DNA from: Synechocystis sp. PCC 6803 substr. PCC-P | GTDB taxonomy: Bacteria > Cyanobacteriota > Cyanobacteriia > Cyanobacteriales > Microcystaceae | Length of the DNA: 32,000 bases | Direction of reading: 5' to 3' | NCBI RefSeq assembly: GCF_000284455.1 | Contig: NC_017039.1 | Coordinates: forward strand, 1,260,001 to 1,292,000 | Shown: positions 3,400 to 31,751 of the stretch, piece after piece | Layout of the letters: each line of letters opens with the position of its first letter | How positions within the stretch are numbered: position 1 is the stretch's first letter | Program-made: the position numbers and the translations under genes | Notes under the pieces: model-generated | What the model saw: the letters and a program-made list of their open reading frames with translations, nothing else | The model's database searches: none | What the model was told of the DNA's origin: nothing

Positions 3400-6300
3400 C
3401 TAGATATCCAAGTCAGTTAGATCCAACTTGGTGCCATAGGTTTCGATGAATTCCCGGCGGGGAGCTACCCGATCGCCCATCAACACCGTAAAAATGCGAT
3501 CGGCTTCAGCGGCATCTTCAATGTGGACACGTTTCATGGTGCGGCTTTCAGGATTCATCGTGGTATCCCAGAGTTGTTGGGGCATCATTTCCCCTAAACC
3601 TTTAAAACGCTGGATGGTGTAATTAGCATTGGGGGGAAACTGACTGATTTGCTCCTGCAATTCCCGGTCGGAATAACAATAGAAATGGTTTTTACCCCGC
3701 TCCAGTTTGTACAACGGCGGACAGGCAATGTAAATGTAGCCTTGGTCCACCAAATCCCGCTGATAACGGTAGAAGAAAGTCAACAAAAGAGTGCGTATGT
3801 GCGCTCCATCTACATCAGCATCGGTCATAATTACTACTCTGTGATAGCGGAGGGAAGATATGTCAAAATCATCACCTTTAATGCCCAGACCTAATGCTGT
3901 AATTAAGGCTTGAATTTCAGTATTTTTATAAATCTTGGCATCGTCAGTTTTTTCAATATTTAAAATCTTGCCCCGTAAAGGCAAAATTGCTTGGAAACGA
4001 CGGTCTCGACCTTGTTTTGCGCTGTTATGGACAAACACTCCGCTTGCCAAAGCAAAATTGTGGGTGTGGGGAACCTCAATATCATAAACATCGATTGTTT
4101 CTGACACAGCTTCAATATTTACAATTCTGTGATTGTAATTTAATACTGCTTCCCTTGCGAGGTTCTCATCATTCTCGAAATACCGTTCACAGAATCGATC
4201 AAAACGTAACAAGGATTTATCTTTAGTCGAAATTCGATAGCTATCGTAAGCAGATATGTCTAAATAACCATTTTCGATCTCAACTTGTTTTAGTGCCGCT
4301 AGAGTTTTGCGGTAATAGGTTTGGGCCAGAGCTTCTCGACGTTTTTCTCGAAATTCAGGAGTCCATTGTTCCTTTGTTTTTTTCTGTCGCCATTTCAACA
4401 ATTCGGGATTATTCCATTGTTTAACCGCATTCTCTGAATATTGTTGTCGTAATCCAGGATTTTGTGCGAAATGTTGACGTACCCTTTCTGCTTGAGCAGT
4501 ACGATTCTCCGCCTGCGCCCAATATTCCTGTTGAGCACGATTTAGCTGTTCTGCATTTTGCTGACGATAATCCTCATTACTGTCGTAGAAACTACGCCAA
4601 CTTTCCATCATTGTTAATTTATAGGTTTCATTTTGCCATTGGGCCTGGGCCTGTTTGGACAAAATTGCCCGTGTTTCCGGTGATTGCATCCTTGCGCTCA
4701 TTTTCCGTCGAAACTCAGGACTTTGGTGAATTCGACGACATTTCTCTACCACATCAGGGCGATGTAATGTTTTACTAATGTGCTTACGGTGAAGCGCTAA
4801 ATGTTTTTCAGGGGATAAGCGAATTAAATTATCGGGATTATTATTCCGCTTATTAAAGTCTTTGTGATGGCAATGTTGTTTTTCTTCTGCAATATAAATT
4901 CCCTGCCAACGATTATACCAGTCTGCAACTAAATGGGTAAATAGCCAGCTATCGGAACGGGGACTCCAAACCATTTCATAGCCATCAATTGTAATACCAG
5001 AATCTTCCGTAGTCGAAATTTTTCGGTGTAACGGCATTAACGAATCATCGAGAGTTAAATCCATCGCACATTTGTAGCTCCCATCCCGCAACATGAATTT
5101 ATGATCCGGGGTGCAAATAATAGACTCACCATTGTCCAACGTAACCTTGATTACCTTCGCATTAGTTTTTGTTTTGCGGGCATTGATGATTTTTTCAACC
5201 CCTATAGAACCATCATGGCGGATGGTATAACAAAAGTTTTGTTTTCCTTGTTTTTCTTCTTCAACCAATTGCTCAAAGCTAACGCTACGACCATCAGTTA
5301 AAGCGACTAATGTATCTCCAGAAAAACAGCCGCCGGCAGAGTCTCCTTCCACGATGAAAATTTCCGATTCCGAGGGATCTTTGGAGCTACAGTCTGCCAA
5401 TTTACCCGGTAAAGTTGAAGACTCTAAAACTGATTTACGGCGTACTAATTCCCTGGCTCGACGGGCTGCTTCCGCTGCTTTAAAAGCCTGCACTGCTTTT
5501 TCAATGATGGCATCGGCAACCCCAGGATTAAATTCTAAAAATTCCGTTAGAGCTTCCCCCACCAAGGTATCCACAATGCCCCGGACTTCCGTGTTGCCCA
5601 ATTTAGTTTTGGTTTGTCCTTCAAATTCTGGGTCCGGTACTTTAACGGAAATAACGCCGGTTAGGCCCTCACGAATATTTTCTCCCCCTAAATTACTATC
5701 GCCATCCTTTAACTTATTGCGCTTACGGGCAACGGAGTTGAGAGTACGGGTTAAAACCGCTTTTAGACCTTCTAAATGGGTGCCACCATCAATAGTGCGG
5801 ATATTGTTGGCAAATCCCAAGAGAGTATCACTATACGCATCCACACACCACTGGAGGGCCACCTCCACCTGGACGTCATTTTTTTCCCCGGAAGTGTAAA
5901 TAATTTCCTCGTGGAGCGGGGTTTTGTCCGTGGTCATATAGGTGACATATTCCCTAATGCCCCCTTCATAATAAAACTGCTCTTCTTTGAGGGAATCCGC
6001 CCGGCGATCGCCAAAGGTAATGCGAACCCCAGCGTTGAGGTAGGCCAACTCCTTGAGACGACTGGCCAGGGTATGGTAATCAAACTCGATGCCATCCTTA
6101 AAAATCTGGGTGTCTGGCAAAAAAGAAACCTGGGTTCCTGTGGAGTGCCCTTCGTTTGGGGTAGCTTCTAGCGTGCCAATGGGATTGCCCCGCTCAAACC
6201 GCTGGAAGTGTTCCTTCCCCTGGCGCCAAACCTTCACTTCCACCCATTCGGACAGGGCGTTAACAACGGAAACCCCTACCCCGTGCAAACCACCGGATAC

Positions 6301-12560: not shown

Positions 12561-13385
12561 ATGATTTCCCAGCCCCAAGGATTTACCCGCCTTAGCCGTT
12601 CTTCTCATCGCTTCTTCCCAGCCCGTTGGTTAATGGCTTTTGGTTGGGGTGTCGGTCTAATGGCGTTGGGATCATTGCCCCTCAATGCCGCCACCATTGC
12701 CCAGGGGAATGTAACTGAACGTCAAGTGCGGGCTTTAATTGAACAATTTGATGCGGTGGCCAACCAACACAATACTGATCGCCTGGGGGAAATTTACAGC
12801 CCTGAATTTAGCAACAGTGACGGTCTGACCTTTGCCCAAATGGAAACGACTCTGCAACAGCTTTGGGAAACATATGGCAATTTGACCTACAGCACCGAAC
12901 TGAAAAACTGGAAACAGGATGGGCAAGCAGTGGTGGTGGAAACTTTGACCACCATTCAGGGGGAACGGCCTTGGCTGGGTCGCACCGCCCAATTGAATGG
13001 ACAAATTACCTCCCGCCAAACCTTTGTGCAAAATAAATTGGTACGCCAGGAAGTGTTAACGGAAAAAATGACCCTCACCGCCGGGGACAATCCACCGGAA
13101 GTGGACGTTAATTTGCCTCAGCAAGTGCAGGCGGGCCAAGAATTTGATTTCGATGTTGTCCTGCGTCAACCCATTGGTGATGACCTCCTGGCGGGCACAG
13201 CTTTTAGTCAAAAAATAGATCCTAATAACTACGTTGATCCTTCCCAGGTGAAATTGGAATTGTTACAGGCTGGTGGGCTATTCAAACGGGCGATCGCCGG
13301 TAATGATCCCCAGTGGTTGTCTGCCCTACTAGTTACTCCTGAAGGCATGGTATTGGTTACCCAGCGTTTGGCCGTTGTTCCCTAG
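12561..13385 (+). CDS. Hypothetical exported protein
   Basis: The ATG at 12561 gives a basic N-terminus plus hydrophobic segment (WLMAFGWGVGLMALGSLPLNAA), which looks like a signal peptide. A possible NTF2-like segment follows. The track ORF starts at GTG 12480. Confidence 0.5.
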   Translation: MISQPQGFTRLSRSSHRFFPARWLMAFGWGVGLMALGSLPLNAATIAQGNVTERQVRALIEQFDAVANQHNTDRLGEIYSPEFSNSDGLTFAQMETTLQQLWETYGNLTYSTELKNWKQDGQAVVVETLTTIQGERPWLGRTAQLNGQITSRQTFVQNKLVRQEVLTEKMTLTAGDNPPEVDVNLPQQVQAGQEFDFDVVLRQPIGDDLLAGTAFSQKIDPNNYVDPSQVKLELLQAGGLFKRAIAGNDPQWLSALLVTPEGMVLVTQRLAVVP

Positions 13386-13423
13386 GGAAACTGTAACAGC
13401 GATGAAAAAATCAGTCGGAGAAT

Positions 13424-14353
13424 GTGAAAATTAAACAAGCTATTGCCAAACCCTTTCTGAAATGGGCTGGAGGTAAGGGAAAGTTAATTGAACAATTGGT
13501 TAATTGCTTCCCCTTAGAAATCACCACTGGTCAGTTAACTAAGTATGCTGAGCCTTTTATTGGTGGCGGGGCTTTGTACTTTCATGTTGCCCAAAATTAT
13601 CCCCAGATAGAAAAATTCTTTATCTCCGACTGCAATCAGCAGTTAGTTTTGGCTTATCAGACTATTCAACAAAATGTTGATGATTTAATTGATTTTTTAA
13701 GACGGCTACAGCAGAAGTATTATTGTTTCAACCAAGATGAAAGAAAAGATTTTTTTTATCAGCAAAGACTAAAATTCAACCAGAATGTTACCGGAATAAA
13801 TTTAGAAAAATTTAGTAAATTGTGGATAGAGCAAACTGGTCTGCTTATATTTTTAAATCGTACCTGTTTTAACGGCTTATTTCGAGTTAACTCTAAAGGA
13901 GAATTTAATGTACCCTTTGGGGATTATAAAAATCCTAAGATTTGCGATGCTGAGAATCTTAAGTTAGTAGCCAACTTACTTGCCAGAACAGAAATAAGAT
14001 TTGGTGATTTTACTTCGAGTAATAACTTCATTGATGCATCCACCTTTGTTTATTTTGACCCGCCCTATCGTCCCTTAAATAAAACCTCCAGCTTTAACTC
14101 CTATGGTAAAGCGAACTTCAATGATAATGAGCAATTGAGGTTAGCTGAATATTACCAATCACTCAATAACAAAAACGCTAAGTTGATGTTGAGCAATTCC
14201 GATCCGAAAAATATTAATAGCGACGATAACTTTTTTGATGATTTATATCGGGGTTTTCAAATTGCTCGGATCGATGCCCTCCGTATGATTAACAGTCAGG
14301 CTGACAAAAGAGGTGCAATTAAAGAAATATTGGTTGTGAATTACCATCGCTGA
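13424..14353 (+). CDS. dam: Dam-family (D12 class) N6-adenine DNA methyltransferase, orphan
   Basis: Motifs PFLKWAGGKGKL, EPFIGGGALYF (SAM binding) and FDPPY (catalytic). The apparent start is GTG at 13424. No restriction endonuclease gene is adjacent. This probably corresponds to the GATC methylase known in Synechocystis. Confidence 0.85.
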   Translation: MKIKQAIAKPFLKWAGGKGKLIEQLVNCFPLEITTGQLTKYAEPFIGGGALYFHVAQNYPQIEKFFISDCNQQLVLAYQTIQQNVDDLIDFLRRLQQKYYCFNQDERKDFFYQQRLKFNQNVTGINLEKFSKLWIEQTGLLIFLNRTCFNGLFRVNSKGEFNVPFGDYKNPKICDAENLKLVANLLARTEIRFGDFTSSNNFIDASTFVYFDPPYRPLNKTSSFNSYGKANFNDNEQLRLAEYYQSLNNKNAKLMLSNSDPKNINSDDNFFDDLYRGFQIARIDALRMINSQADKRGAIKEILVVNYHR

Positions 14354-14425
14354 TTAGTACGCTGTTGGGATTTTTTTAGTAGGCTAATTGAGGGAACAAA
14401 CTAAAATTATGCCAACAAAGTCTTA

Positions 14426-15296
14426 GAAAGTGTTTGAAAAGTTTTAAGCAAGCCTTTGAAGCATGAGATGGAGCATGGCAACATGAATCATTGTCTCACT
14501 GGTGGTAGGTAAATATTCATAATCCTTGCTTAAACGACGATAGCGTCCAAACCAAGCAAAGGTGCGCTCGACTACCCAACGGCGGGGTAAGACTTCAAAA
14601 CCTTTTTGTCCCTGCTTTTTGCTGACGACATTCAAATTCCAACCAAAAGTATGCTCCACCCAATAGATAAAATCCTTTCCGCCAAAGGTGCTGTCAGTCC
14701 ATATAACTTGCAGGCACTGCCAAAGGGGAGCAAACCAGGTAGCAAGTAGAATCAGACCCTGATGGTCGGAGCGATGGGCACCATGGACGACAACATCGAG
14801 AAGTAATCCCATGGTATCCACGAGGATTGTACGTTTACGACCATTGACCTTTTTTCCGCCGTCATAGCCAGTTTCTTGGCCAGTTCCAGCCTTTTTAAGT
14901 GACTGTGAATCTAAACAACCAGCACTAGGGTGAGTATTTCTTCCAGCTTTGAGTCGAACCTTCTCACGGAAGATACGGTTTAATTTTCTCCAGGTACCAT
15001 CTTCGTGCCATTGCTGGAAATAACCATAGACCGTTCGCCATTTAGGGAAATCATGGGGTAGAAGTCGCCAGGCACACCCCGTTCTGAGCATGTAAAAAAT
15101 GGCATTGAGTATCTCCCGCAGACTAGTTTTCCGTTTTCTTCCCCCAGTTTTTGCTTTGGGTAAATGGGGTTCTACCAATTGCCACTGGCTATCAGTGATG
15201 TCCGTGCTGTAAAATTCTCGAATTATCATTAATTATGGTGAAAATTTTATTCTTTTCACCATTTTCCATTCTTCACCCTACTTTTCAAACACGCTC
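14426..15296 (-). mobile_element. IS5-family insertion sequence, 871 bp, with one intact transposase ORF
   Basis: Imperfect terminal inverted repeats: GAAAGTGTTTGAAAAGT (14426-14442) versus the reverse complement of ACTTTTCAAACACGCTC (15280-15296), 15/17 matching. It is flanked by a direct TTA at 14423-14425 and 15297-15299. The size and context recall the ISY523 type of Synechocystis, unverified. Ends are uncertain by a few bp. Confidence 0.75.
14444..15229 (-). CDS. IS5-family DDE transposase (261 aa)
   Basis: The N-terminal 'DSQWQLVEPHLP...GRKRK...REILNAIFYMLRTGCAWRLLP' (DUF4096-type HTH) followed by a DDE domain is the typical IS5/IS427-IS1031 group architecture. Confidence 0.85.
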   Translation of the reverse strand: MIIREFYSTDITDSQWQLVEPHLPKAKTGGRKRKTSLREILNAIFYMLRTGCAWRLLPHDFPKWRTVYGYFQQWHEDGTWRKLNRIFREKVRLKAGRNTHPSAGCLDSQSLKKAGTGQETGYDGGKKVNGRKRTILVDTMGLLLDVVVHGAHRSDHQGLILLATWFAPLWQCLQVIWTDSTFGGKDFIYWVEHTFGWNLNVVSKKQGQKGFEVLPRRWVVERTFAWFGRYRRLSKDYEYLPTTSETMIHVAMLHLMLQRLA

Positions 15297-28184: not shown

Positions 28185-28460
28185 GGGGAGCGCTATTTGA
28201 AGTTTTTAGAATCTTAACAAAACCCCTGCCCCCACCACGGCGATCGCCCCTGGTAACCAATTACAGAAAGTTCAAATTCGTCCCAAATCGAGCAGTGCAT
28301 GGCAGCTTCTAAAGGACTAATAAACTCTAAAAAGAAAGCCGCCACTGAAGCAATGGGCGACCTCTAGCAATCGGAGGGTGATATTGACTTTATGTCTTAT
28401 CTTCAGGTTAAGGCCGGATCGGTAGGCTTTATGTAGCCTATTTGACGAAAGTTCCCGTAA

Positions 28461-29506: not shown

Positions 29507-29535
29507 TTGGGGACAATTTTTGCTAAGGCTACAAT
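29507..29535 (+). promoter_or_regulatory. Candidate sigma70-type promoter for the DUF29 array
   Basis: TTGGGG (29507-29512), a 17-nt spacer, then TACAAT (29530-29535), about 32 nt upstream of the first DUF29 ATG. This is sequence pattern only. Confidence 0.3.
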
Positions 29536-29567
29536 GAAGCTTAAGACAAATGATTGAGGAAGGTTGC

Positions 29568-30029
29568 ATGGTTGCTGAACTCCGCAAAACCAATACAAAT
29601 CTTTATGAGACAGACTACAATCTTTGGGTTTTAGAAACTGTCGCCAAGTTGAAAAGTCGAGACTTGGATGGTCTAGATTGGGACAATTTAATTGAGGAGG
29701 TGGAGGATTTGAGTCGGCGCGACAAAAAAAAGCTTAAAAGTCTTTTACGTCTACTGTGTGAACATCTTCTTAAACTCACATATTGGCAATCTGAGCTTCA
29801 AAGGAATGAAGGCCATTGGAGGAGAGAAATTCGTAATTTCCGGAAACAGATTAATGAAGAGTTAGAAAGTAGTCCAAGTTTACGAAACTATCTTAGTGAC
29901 ATCTTTGATAAATGTTATCGTGATGGGAGAGAATTGGCTGCTGACCAATCCGAACTTCCTCTCAGCATCTTTCCCGAACACCCCATTGCTACCCTTGAGC
30001 AGGTACTGGATGAAGATTGGTTGCCCTAG
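29568..30029 (+). CDS. DUF29-family protein, array copy 1 (153 aa)
   Basis: The start is set at MVAELRKTN by homology with the three paralogs, with GAGGAAGG upstream. DUF29-like motifs: LYETDYNLW, LDW.NLIEEV, EHLLKL.YW, SPSL and FPE.PIATLEQVLDEDWLP. Confidence 0.8.
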   Translation: MVAELRKTNTNLYETDYNLWVLETVAKLKSRDLDGLDWDNLIEEVEDLSRRDKKKLKSLLRLLCEHLLKLTYWQSELQRNEGHWRREIRNFRKQINEELESSPSLRNYLSDIFDKCYRDGRELAADQSELPLSIFPEHPIATLEQVLDEDWLP

Positions 30030-30151
30030 GCGCACCGCGTAGCGGATCTCTGCGAGATCGCCAGATAATTCATTTCGATTTATAGATGGTACTACCATTG
30101 ATTGGGTAGAAGCTAGAATAAAATTTACAACTAATTAACGAGGTCAACACT
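30030..30151 (+). repeat. 122-nt array spacer, copy A (near-identical to 31165-31286)
   Basis: By hand alignment there are 3 mismatches in 122 nt against copy B. It contains the hairpin GGATCTC-TGC-GAGATC and a TAGAAT box. Confidence 0.9.
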
Positions 30152-30628
30152 ATGGTTGCTGAACTCCGCAAAACAAATCAAAATCTTTATGAGACAGATT
30201 ACAATCTTTGGGTTTTAGAAACTGTTGTCAAACTAAAAAATAAAGATTTAGATAATCTGGATTGGGAGAATTTAATTGAGGAGGTAGAGGATTTGAGTCG
30301 GCGGGATAAAAAAAAGCTCAAAAGTCTTTTGAGGTTATTATTTGAACATTTATTAAAATTGTCCTATTGGAAAAGTGAGGAGCAGAACAATCGTAATCAT
30401 TGGGAGGCCGAGATTATTAATTTTCGTCAATTGATTGAGGATGAATTAGCAGATAGTCCTAGTCTCAAAGTTTATTTGCAAGAAATTTGGCAAGAATGTT
30501 ACCAGTATGGGCGCAAGATCGCGGCTAAGCGTTCTCAACTTCCCCTCAGTACATTTCCAGAGGAACCCATTGCTACCCTTGAACAAATATTGAATGAAGA
30601 TTGGTTGCCCTATGCGATCGCCAGATAA
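30152..30628 (+). CDS. DUF29-family protein, array copy 2 (158 aa)
   Basis: Paralog of copy 1. The C-terminus is extended by YAIAR because TAT replaces the TAG stop seen in copies 1 and 3. Confidence 0.8.
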   Translation: MVAELRKTNQNLYETDYNLWVLETVVKLKNKDLDNLDWENLIEEVEDLSRRDKKKLKSLLRLLFEHLLKLSYWKSEEQNNRNHWEAEIINFRQLIEDELADSPSLKVYLQEIWQECYQYGRKIAAKRSQLPLSTFPEEPIATLEQILNEDWLPYAIAR

Positions 30629-30702
30629 TGAGGCAAATCGTGTGCCCACTCATTGAGTGGAAGCTAAAATAAGATTGACGATTAATCATTTGGGAAAACA
30701 GC
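30629..30702 (+). repeat. Degenerate, shortened copy of the array spacer
   Basis: Shares CATTGA.TGG.AGCTA.AATAA.ATT.AC.A.TAAT with spacers A and B, but lacks the 5' hairpin part. Confidence 0.6.
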
Positions 30703-31164
30703 ATGGTTGCCGAACTCCGCAAAACTAATACAAGTCTTTATGAGACGGATTACAATCTTTGGATTCTAGAAACCGTACAAAAGTTGCAATGCCGAGATTT
30801 AGAGAATCTAGACTGGGAATATTTGATTGAGGAGGTATTAAGCTTGAGTCGGCGAGATAGGCACAAACTAGCTAGTTTGCTAACCAGACTATTCGAGCAT
30901 TTATTAAAGTTGGGCTATTGGCATTCAGAAAAAGAAAGAAACCGAAACCATTGGAGGCGAGAAATTCGCAATTTTCGTCTTCAAATTGACCGATTGCTAA
31001 GTGACAGCCCAAGCCTAAAACCTTATTTGTCAGAGATTTTTGATAAATGTTACAAAAATGGCATAAGTTTAGCTTCTGATAGTTCGGGCTTATCGATTGA
31101 AAATTTTCCCGAACAACCCATTGCTACCTTTGAACAAGTACTGGATGAAGATTGGTTGCCCTAG
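30703..31164 (+). CDS. DUF29-family protein, array copy 3 (153 aa)
   Basis: Paralog. Shares HWRREIRNFR, IFDKCY and the TAG stop context with copy 1. Confidence 0.8.
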   Translation: MVAELRKTNTSLYETDYNLWILETVQKLQCRDLENLDWEYLIEEVLSLSRRDRHKLASLLTRLFEHLLKLGYWHSEKERNRNHWRREIRNFRLQIDRLLSDSPSLKPYLSEIFDKCYKNGISLASDSSGLSIENFPEQPIATFEQVLDEDWLP

Positions 31165-31286
31165 GCGCACCGCGCAGCGGATCTCTGCGAGATCGCCAGA
31201 TAATTCATTTCGATTTATAGATGGTATTACCATTGATTGGGTAGAAGCTAGAATAAAATTTACAACTAATCAACGAGGTCAACACT
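31165..31286 (+). repeat. 122-nt array spacer, copy B
   Basis: See copy A. Confidence 0.9.
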
Positions 31287-31751
31287 ATGGTTGCTGAACT
31301 CCACAAAACCAATACAAATCTTTATGAGACAGATTACAATCTTTGGGTTTTAGAAACTGTTGCTAAACTTAAAAATCAAGACTTGGATGCTCTAGATTGG
31401 GAAAATTTAATTGAGGAGGTAGAAGATTTGAGTCGGCGCGATAAACATAAATTACAAAGTCTTCTCAATCATATTTTTGAACATCTCCTTTTGATTGTTT
31501 ACTGGCAAGCAGAATTTATCCGGAATCAAGGGCATTGGGAAAGGAAAATCTTGAATTTCCGCCTACAGCTTCTCCAGGTGTTAGAGGATAATCCGAGTTT
31601 ACGTAACTATGCAAGAGACTATTTAGTGGAGGGGTACAAAAAAGGTAGAAAATTAGCAGCTAAACATTCTCAACTTCCCCTCAGTAAATTTCCAGAGGAG
31701 CCCATTGCTACCCTTGAACAAGTACTGGATGAAGATTGGTTGCCACAGTAG
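31287..31751 (+). CDS. DUF29-family protein, array copy 4 (154 aa)
   Basis: Paralog. The 5' 75 nt are nearly identical to copies 1 and 2, and the 3' SQLPLSKFPEEPIATLEQVLDEDWLP block is nearly identical to copy 2. Confidence 0.8.
   Translation: MVAELHKTNTNLYETDYNLWVLETVAKLKNQDLDALDWENLIEEVEDLSRRDKHKLQSLLNHIFEHLLLIVYWQAEFIRNQGHWERKILNFRLQLLQVLEDNPSLRNYARDYLVEGYKKGRKLAAKHSQLPLSKFPEEPIATLEQVLDEDWLPQ

Follow-up and report, generated by a model that had tools for sequence, protein, structure and literature searches.

The window, a stretch of 32,000 nucleotides (nt) from Synechocystis sp. PCC 6803 substr. PCC-P (contig NC_017039.1, positions 1,260,001 to 1,292,000), carries near its 3′ end a tandem array of four genes of the DUF29 family (PF01724), all on the same strand. 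An initial annotation, made from the sequence alone, had described four genes of 153–158 amino acids (aa) with periods of 584, 551, and 584 bp. The coordinates of the open reading frames (ORFs) bear this out: the copies encode 153, 158, 153, and 154 aa, and the periods are the distances between successive start codons (Table 1). All four copies were matched by the Pfam DUF29 model with 155–175 bits (E-values of 1e-45 to 1e-51) over model positions 1–138 of 138. Family membership requires a full-length match to the hidden Markov model above the gathering score, which is 22.5 bits for PF01724. Codons 1–153 of the four copies align without gaps, and the encoded proteins are acidic (pI 5.0–5.4), with a mass of ~18 kDa. 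A fifth DUF29 copy was not found in the window. Tandem Repeats Finder reported no repeat in the array, the period being above its 500-nt limit and the copies too divergent.

The start codon of copy 1 at position 29568 is preceded by a GAGG-like ribosome-binding site and is common to all copies; a further upstream ATG at 29550 represents an alternative start. Judged from its position, copy 1 is probably slr1811. For copy 3, slr1813, a silent G-to-A change is listed as specific to the PCC 6803 substrain GT-T (PMC10068330).

Table 1. Coordinates of the DUF29 genes, their segments, and the intervening spacers (positions in the window)
Feature	Position	Strand	Remarks
-10-like hexamer TACAAT before copy 1	29530..29535	+	Read from sequence; promoter role inferred
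DUF29 copy 1, core type A, 153 aa	29568..30029	+	ORF; PF01724 match, E 1.5e-51
Homogenised 5′ tract, codons 1 to ~45	29568..29702	+	Equivalents 30152–30286, 30703–30837 (weaker), 31287–31421
Diverged core	29718..29942	+	Helices 2 to 4; equivalents 30302–30526, 30853–31077, 31437–31661
Homogenised 3′ tract, codons ~131–153	29958..30026	+	Equivalents 30542–30610, 31093–31161, 31677–31745
Spacer between copies 1 and 2, 122 bp	30030..30151	+	40-nt 3′ module GCGCACCGCGTAGCGGATCTCTGCGAGATCGCCAGATAAT (30030–30069), then "alpha" upstream segment
-10-like hexamer TAGAAT in alpha segment before copy 2	30114–30119	+	33–38 nt before ATG
DUF29 copy 2, core type B, 158 aa	30152..30628	+	ORF; PF01724 match
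Spacer between copies 2 and 3, 74 bp	30629..30702	+	"Beta" upstream segment
-10-like hexamer TAAAAT in beta segment before copy 3	30665–30670	+	
DUF29 copy 3 (slr1813, source name), core type C, 153 aa	30703..31164	+	ORF; PF01724 match
Spacer between copies 3 and 4, 122 bp	31165..31286	+	Same 3′ module (31165–31204), then alpha segment
Hexamer TAGAAT before copy 4	31249–31254	+	Promoter-like site ends at 31254
DUF29 copy 4 (slr1814, source name), core type D, 154 aa	31287..31751	+	ORF; PF01724 match

Gene ends and cores in PCC 6803 and related strains

To describe the array, we divided each gene into two ends and a core, the latter comprising nt 151–375 (codons 51–125 for synonymous estimates). 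Nucleotide identity in sliding windows amounted to 0.84–1.00 over the first 75 nt, 0.40–0.73 over nt ~150–375, and 0.71–0.96 over the last 70 nt, in line with the strongly diverged core described initially. The first 75 nt had been called almost identical in all genes. This is true of copies 1, 2, and 4, with an identity of 93–96% (three mismatches between copies 1 and 4, four between copies 2 and 4), but not of copy 3, which diverges most at the 5′ end (87–88% to the others). At the 3′ end, the encoded peptide PIATLEQVLDEDWLP is nearly invariant, but "almost identical" is too strong a term at the nucleotide level, as nt 391–459 are 77–91% identical. Taken as whole segments, the ends of the copies share 77–100% of their nucleotides and the cores 40–65%.

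The contrast between ends and core was also found at synonymous sites. Synonymous divergence (dS) over codons 1–25 was 0.07–0.22 among copies 1, 2, and 4 and 0.53–0.65 for the pairs with copy 3, so that end dS spans 0.07–0.65 in the window. The proportion of differing synonymous sites (pS) over codons 51–125 reached 0.74–0.91, i.e., saturation. In all six pairs of copies, synonymous differences were far rarer in the ends than in the core (Fisher p of 4e-4 to 9e-10). Because the contrast extends to synonymous sites, protein constraint is not its explanation.

DUF29 arrays occupy the same position, 3′ of a conserved DUF362 gene, in five further Synechocystis sources, with differing sets of cores. 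The PCC 6803 array reads A-B-C-D in terms of core types. Four copies are present in strain CACIAM 05 (locus L006, A-E-F-D), two in PCC 7338 (L007, G-D, followed by an insertion sequence (IS) element), four in Synechocystis sp. B12 (L008, A-B-C-B), one partial copy plus four in a metagenome contig (L009, (A)-B-C-B-E), and four in S. salina LEGE 00031 (L010). Cores of the same type were 98–100% identical for A, B, and C, 88–93% for D, and 96% for E, compared to 51–67% between types; the core of copy 1 is 100% identical to that of the first CACIAM 05 copy. The type F copy of CACIAM 05 ends in a C-terminal segment that is 100% identical to the type B C-end.

Between orthologous alleles, the core diverges more slowly than the rest of the gene, which is the reverse of the within-genome pattern. 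For type A in PCC 6803 and CACIAM 05, dS was 0.023 in the core and 0.21 elsewhere in the gene; the DUF362 gene next to the array, which may serve as a yardstick, has a dS of 0.079 between the same two strains. The corresponding values for type D were 0.37 and 1.0 between CACIAM 05 and PCC 7338, and 0.097 and 0.385 between PCC 7338 and S. salina. The dN/dS ratio between orthologous alleles was 0.06–0.22; in two further pairs, which are almost identical and differ at no more than two core positions each, the ratio is uninformative. Within the converted segment, paralogues were closer to each other at synonymous sites than orthologues, as in concerted evolution. The faster divergence of the ends of orthologues therefore indicates that the ends are overwritten from paralogues, and that the cores are inherited vertically under purifying selection.

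Nearly identical ends flanking very different cores could also stem from a recent tandem duplication that was followed by rapid diversification of the core, by either positive selection or a mutagenic mechanism, and the location of the variable residues on exposed faces of helices 3 and 4 (see below) would suit such a scenario. It is contradicted, however, by the saturated synonymous sites of the core, by the presence of the same cores in other strains at 98–100% identity, and by the low dN/dS of most orthologous pairs. Core types are even shared with other genomes and genera at 81–100% identity, their ends often being less similar than the cores. Moreover, the variability among core types tracks the variability of the whole family (rho 0.89), the core mismatches lack an adenine bias, and neither a reverse transcriptase nor a recombinase gene lies nearby. 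We consider a recent duplication very improbable, and the same observations speak against the initial view that core diversification is an active process. A diversity-generating retroelement was likewise rejected, since the core mismatches are distributed over all four bases and no reverse transcriptase gene occurs within ~10 kb on either side.

In the B12 assembly, three copies are frameshifted (L008 4844–7024), which might cast doubt on the repeat structure as such. The frameshifts lie right after a run of eight adenines, and the flanking genes of that assembly are fragmented too; they are probably homopolymer errors of long reads rather than slipped-strand variation. In PCC 6803, an A8 run (GA[C/T] AAA AAA AAG) is present in copy 1 (29723–29730) and copy 2 (30308–30315). 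The copy 2 protein was found on 21 contigs of independent assemblies, including the 3.57-Mb chromosome CP129343.1 and the Bacillus subtilis/Synechocystis chimera AP012495.1. The positions and lengths of the copies are the same in loci L001–L003, and the shorter loci L004–L005 agree as far as they reach. We therefore attach practically no weight to an assembly artefact.

The array had been described as lying in a segment that is AT-rich and poor in HIP1 sites, consistent with accessory DNA. Its AT-richness was confirmed, with a GC content of 39.1% compared to 48.9% elsewhere and a GC content at third codon positions (GC3) of 0.34–0.38 compared to 0.47–0.61 in neighbouring genes. Together with the strain differences in array composition and copy number, this supports an accessory-like character. 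The HIP1 deficit is not significant, with one site seen in the 2.2-kb array versus about two expected. Two more AT-rich stretches of the window, 4001–5000 and 13001–15000 (GC 0.40–0.42 versus ~0.50 around them), may be other accessory segments.

Homology of the PCC 6803 locus to L006–L010 stops at position ~31744, at the end of codon 153 of copy 4. Every blastn alignment to these loci ended at position 11593 of L001, which corresponds to window position 31744. Beyond ~31745, each strain has different genes, encoding methyltransferases and glycosyltransferases of differing families. The strain-variable DNA 3′ of the array comprises L001 11594–14472, L006 8203–12462, L007 6463–9555, and L008 7020–12462, and the gene sets are, strain by strain, Methyltransf_11 and GT41; GT1 and TPR-GT41; IS and VWA; Methyltransf_24 and GT61. 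The array thus marks the edge of a strain-variable island of glycosylation type. In PCC 6803, two pilin-like genes (N_methyl/Pilin_GH) are located ~2 kb further on. About 7 kb past the end of the window (L001 18650–19532, minus strand) lies a distantly related DUF29 paralogue with 32% identity to copy 1. It overlaps by 8 bp with an upstream DUF4351 gene and does not have homogenised ends like those of the array; comparable "far" copies occur in other genera, e.g., in L015, L020, and L067.

Cyanobacterial paralogues, spacers and putative promoters

A search with the DUF29 profile yielded 5,868 clusters at 50% identity. We scanned one genome per species, which gave 78 cyanobacterial DUF29 loci, and analysed them together with four Synechocystis loci. 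At least two DUF29 genes within 5 kb were present in 44 of these 82 loci, the longest rows comprising seven or eight genes (L054, L085). Among 125 full-length genes, the N-terminal ends of same-locus pairs showed a pS of 0.35 and a proportion of nonsynonymous differences (pN) of 0.07, compared to 0.73 and 0.25 for pairs from different loci. The core pS was 0.74 within and 0.78 between loci. The N-end effect persisted when the Synechocystis arrays were left out. Paralogues on different contigs of one genome revealed the same end effect, which is thus not limited to tandem neighbours.

As a stricter measure, we determined codon identity only for positions with identical amino acids in the two proteins. 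Between genomes, it was 0.47, 0.52, and 0.45 for the N-end, core, and C-end, respectively, compared to 0.75, 0.52, and 0.65 within a locus and 0.80, 0.43, and 0.76 among the four window copies. In bins of 10 codons, the excess codon identity spanned codons 1 to ~45 and 131–153 and peaked at codons 1–10, where amino-acid identity was 0.77 within a locus versus 0.39 between genomes. Family-wide entropy was equal in the three segments (1.21, 1.27, and 1.22 bits), so stronger protein constraint on the ends does not explain the effect. End-homogenisation is a general property of cyanobacterial DUF29 paralogues, whether tandem or dispersed.

The homogenised DNA includes the spacers. Those between copies 1 and 2 and between copies 3 and 4 are nearly identical, and that between copies 2 and 3 is unlike them. 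A TAnAAT hexamer is located 33–38 nt before the ATG, at the same distance, in all four genes, which makes independent transcription, with one putative promoter per gene, likely. In every strain examined, the alpha form (TAGAAT) precedes cores B and D, and the beta form (TAAAAT) precedes cores C, E, and F. Most stop codons are followed by the common 40-nt module, which occurs with small deletion variants. It contains a near-HIP1 sequence, GCGAGATCGC; the deletion variant of other strains reads TAGGAGATCGCC. Behind copy 2 of PCC 6803, the module (30610–30629) is shorter by 22 nt and then by 2 nt more. These small deletions eliminated the usual TAG stop and gave rise to the five-residue tail YAIAR of copy 2 and to a perfect HIP1 site (GCGATCGC) at 30614–30621. 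The type B copies of the metagenome contig L009 end at DWLP and retain the long 3′ module.

The conservation of the ends might reside in a function of the DNA or RNA itself, such as a promoter, leader, translation-initiation region, target of a small RNA (sRNA), or 3′ processing signal. The constant distance of the -10-like hexamer from the ATG in four of four copies and the shared module after the stop codons agree with such a function, and slr1813 is a computationally predicted target of the sRNA ApcZ (PMC8136909). Against this, the ends of orthologues diverge faster than their cores, and the end sequences are genome-specific rather than family-specific. RNA folding of the spacer gave no significant structure (z = -0.9), and an Rfam scan found no match within the array. 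Regulation by the spacers could coexist with recombination and would not substitute for it. We regard a nucleic-acid function as an improbable cause of the end conservation.

On the sense strand, the 74–122 bp spacers contain no ORF. Three antisense ORFs of 47–72 aa (29883–30098, 30449–30649, and 31093–31233, all on the minus strand) span the conserved 3′ ends and the spacers. They resemble each other (MV[VI]PSINRNELSGDLAEIR...) and have no Pfam match. They are most simply viewed as a by-product of the conserved DNA.

The DUF29 protein and its genomic company

The AlphaFold2 model, with a mean pLDDT (predicted local distance difference test score) of 86, contains four long helices at residues 12–29, 38–72, 74–101, and 105–128. 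According to this model, the DUF29 protein is predicted to be a four-helix bundle without a recognisable catalytic motif. The model shows the tail encoded by codons 1–10 as disordered (pLDDT below 50), and the sequence of this tail varies family-wide. In a diverse set of members with 32–61% identity, W20 is invariant, and Y13, D16, D37, E44, R92, Y117, and P136 are nearly so. In helices 3 and 4, the residues that vary between the core types recur with helical periodicity (p ≤ 0.001). Most of the variable residues are polar, and most of the invariant core residues are hydrophobic. The variable residues should therefore lie on exposed helix faces, as in any diverged helical bundle; this surface mapping is derived from helical periodicity, not in three dimensions. 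The variability is ordinary for the family.

Foldseek returned as its top match PDB 3fcn (Rru_A3208 from Rhodospirillum rubrum), the only solved DUF29 structure, with a probability of 1.00, a template modelling (TM) score of 0.57, and an E-value of only 0.05. This protein belongs to the same Pfam family but is only 18% identical. The next matches, C3PO/translin (TM ~0.35), were not significant, and a Foldseek comparison with viral structures gave nothing.

In PCC 6803, the DUF362 gene lies on one side of the array and a methyltransferase gene on the other. In a set of 161 ORFs from the flanks of cyanobacterial DUF29 arrays, Uma2 was the commonest family with 27 matches (some ORFs counted on both sides), followed by DUF4351 and DUF2887 and then by sugar-nucleotide and methyltransferase genes. 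With a local Uma2 model, we detected 40 Uma2 ORFs in 27 of the 78 loci. Nineteen of the 40 are situated at most 150 bp from a DUF29 gene, on either side of it, and 18 of these 19 on the same strand. In L026 (3774–7137) and L030 (5001–9132), DUF29 genes alternate with Uma2 genes on the same strand; in L085 (1577–6383), the last of eight DUF29 genes in a row is followed by a DUF2887–DUF4351 (Rpn-like) gene. On small plasmids, DUF29 is found among toxin–antitoxin-like genes, as in pACRY06 with the gene order RelE, DUF2283, DUF29, and two DUF4160/DUF2442 pairs. A tandem pair resides on an Escherichia coli plasmid, and the Ralstonia inoviruses RSS1 and RSS0 carry DUF29 as an accessory ORF.

This company has a bearing on the idea that the array represents the specificity repertoire of a conflict system, whose cores would act in immunity, as antitoxins, as nuclease inhibitors, or as defence sensors and would be kept diverse by balancing selection. 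The core types have remained discrete although recombination acts on either side of them, which suggests that selection counteracts core homogenisation, and the proximity of DUF29 to toxin–antitoxin-like, inoviral, Uma2, and DUF2887/DUF4351 nuclease-family genes points in the same direction, as does the position of the array at the border of a strain-variable island. On the other hand, there is no toxin or other partner gene in the spacers or beside the array, the order of DUF29 and Uma2 genes is not fixed where both occur, an IMG/VR scan gave one weak match, and an NCBIfam search gave a single match at noise level. The initial proposal of an immunity, antitoxin, or specificity array found no positive evidence, and we regard a conflict-system repertoire as unlikely, though it would agree with the gene neighbourhoods and the lasting core types.

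Three more specific classes were considered and rejected. A type II toxin–antitoxin module, in which a toxin and an antitoxin gene from different families are adjacent, co-transcribed, and fixed in their order, does not fit spacers without a sense ORF, neighbours that are DUF29, DUF362, and methyltransferase genes, and a Uma2 gene that elsewhere lies on either side. A polymorphic-toxin immunity array would be accompanied by an upstream toxin gene whose C-terminal domain varies, by orphan toxin fragments among the immunity genes, or by both, and neither occurs in or beside the array. An invertible shufflon or phase-variable cassette is at variance with copies that are all direct repeats and with a neighbourhood free of recombinase genes.

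Two RNA elements were found elsewhere in the window. The nitrogen-stress-induced sRNA NsiR4 (Rfam RF02677) was matched at full length at 28336–28398 on the minus strand (81.7 bits versus a gathering score of 40), between the DUF362 gene and a 126-aa ORF upstream of the array. A cobalamin riboswitch aptamer (RF00174, 56.8 bits) at 299–439 on the plus strand overlaps the start of the listed ORF 289–1065, and the real gene start is therefore probably further downstream.

Explanation of the array and comparison with known systems

From the sequence pattern and the comparison of strains and genomes, we infer a mechanism in which recombination overwrites the gene ends. The four copies are no recent duplicates; they carry cores of old, discrete lineages (A, B, C, and D), each of which is kept intact by purifying selection. 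Recombination would overwrite the first 135–150 nt and the last 70–85 nt of the gene as well as the intergenic spacer, and would proceed in two ways, by gene conversion from one paralogue to another and by unequal crossing-over inside the array. The required homology would be supplied by the 5′ tract, the 3′ tract, and the spacers. The cores would be too diverged to recombine, are probably also protected by selection, and would stay distinct while the ends evolve in concert within a genome. The same recombination could alter the number, order, and identity of the core cassettes between strains, and could have made the 3′ end of the last copy the border of the strain-variable methyltransferase/glycosyltransferase region. 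Old, stable cores with ends and spacers homogenised by recombination among four complete, independently promoted DUF29 genes are, in our judgement, probably the correct explanation of the array. Recombination or gene conversion at the gene ends, as proposed initially, is supported by the synonymous homogenisation of ends and spacers, the faster divergence of the ends between orthologues, and the C-end identity of types F and B.

Several observations weigh against this explanation or its functional extension. A mosaic core had been described initially, and the three possible four-taxon site partitions (11, 13, and 16 sites) are indeed unevenly spread along the gene. The heterogeneity of site patterns in the window copies is supported at only p = 0.027 in a permutation test, however, and a Sawyer-type run test on the 53 silent polymorphic sites of the four copies was not significant (p ≥ 0.12), so that support for a mosaic is weak. 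The motifs quoted for it are all present, namely HWRREIRNFR and IFDKCY in copies 1 and 3, SQLPLS.FPEEP in copies 2 and 4, and SLRNY together with an N-terminal stretch in copies 1 and 4, but HWRREIRNFR is near the family consensus, and its sharing may therefore be ancestral. As the tests confined to the window are weak, the case rests on the contrasts between segments and the comparison between genomes. Because core dS is saturated, dN/dS between core types is unreliable. Paralogues on different contigs of one genome also have a lower core pS than pairs from different genomes (0.63 versus 0.79); codon bias shared within a genome somewhat lowers core pS, too. As to function, a family-profile search of PDB sequences retrieved only 3fcn (E 1.5e-11), so that the sole fold and profile match is itself uncharacterised. 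The longer family members provided no informative domain fusions, one of them being a read-through into an IS605 OrfB gene. No Uma2 gene was found at the Synechocystis locus, and matches to PADLOC-DB v2 were at noise level (E ≥ 0.003, 10–15 bits), none of them to a known defence system. The literature searched for DUF29, PF01724, and slr1811–slr1814 contained incidental mentions only. We nevertheless conclude that the recombination half of the initial interpretation is right and the diversification half wrong in direction: the ends are dynamic, and the cores are old and stable.

DUF29 might act in the cyanobacterial mobilome as a binding or adaptor protein without enzymatic activity, the alternative core surfaces representing different specificities, possibly together with adjacent Uma2 nucleases; we hold this to be possible, though doubtful. 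Considerably more speculative, and in our estimate rather improbable, is the idea that DUF29 termini and spacers serve as portable homology arms for recombinase-free swapping of cores, and of adjacent island DNA, among loci and strains of naturally transformable cyanobacteria. Balancing selection would then hold the repertoire of cores, each surface variant having a specificity of its own in a conflict system that also includes Uma2 and Rpn-like nucleases. Our data suggest that selection maintains core diversity and that Uma2 is a candidate partner. DUF29 ranks among the large gene families whose expansion in cyanobacteria is unexplained, and stable cores between recombining ends, strain-specific cassette differences, and interleaving with Uma2 turn a list of paralogues into something testable. 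For annotators and phylogeneticists, caution is advisable, as trees of whole DUF29 genes mix two histories.

Among known families, Uma2 (COG4636) resembles DUF29. Both consist of small genes that stand alone, have undergone a huge expansion in cyanobacteria, and are also carried by mobile DNA, and in both the paralogues are grouped in cassettes instead of fixed modules of two genes. For Uma2, roles as a selfish element or as a solo toxin have been put forward (PMC551604; PMC2701414). The two families are not homologous, as Uma2 has a putative PD-(D/E)XK nuclease fold and DUF29 is a predicted four-helix bundle, and Uma2 genes are physically interleaved with same-strand DUF29 genes in other cyanobacteria but absent from the Synechocystis array.

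Segmental, i.e., partial, gene conversion and concerted evolution are known phenomena in bacterial multigene families. To our knowledge, concerted evolution restricted to the gene ends has been described for neither DUF29 nor Uma2. By analogy, the array may be likened to the HsdS subunits of Type I systems and to pilE/pilS of Neisseria, in which conserved flanks provide the homology, a variable core keeps its identity, and new combinations of cassettes arise. Unlike the cassettes of these systems, every DUF29 copy is complete and equipped with a putative promoter, and none is silent; moreover, the copies are direct repeats without a recombinase or invertase gene nearby. Against this background, three features of DUF29 appear to be new: its systematic segmental concerted evolution, the cassettes that differ between strains at the border of an island, and the interleaving of its genes with those of Uma2.

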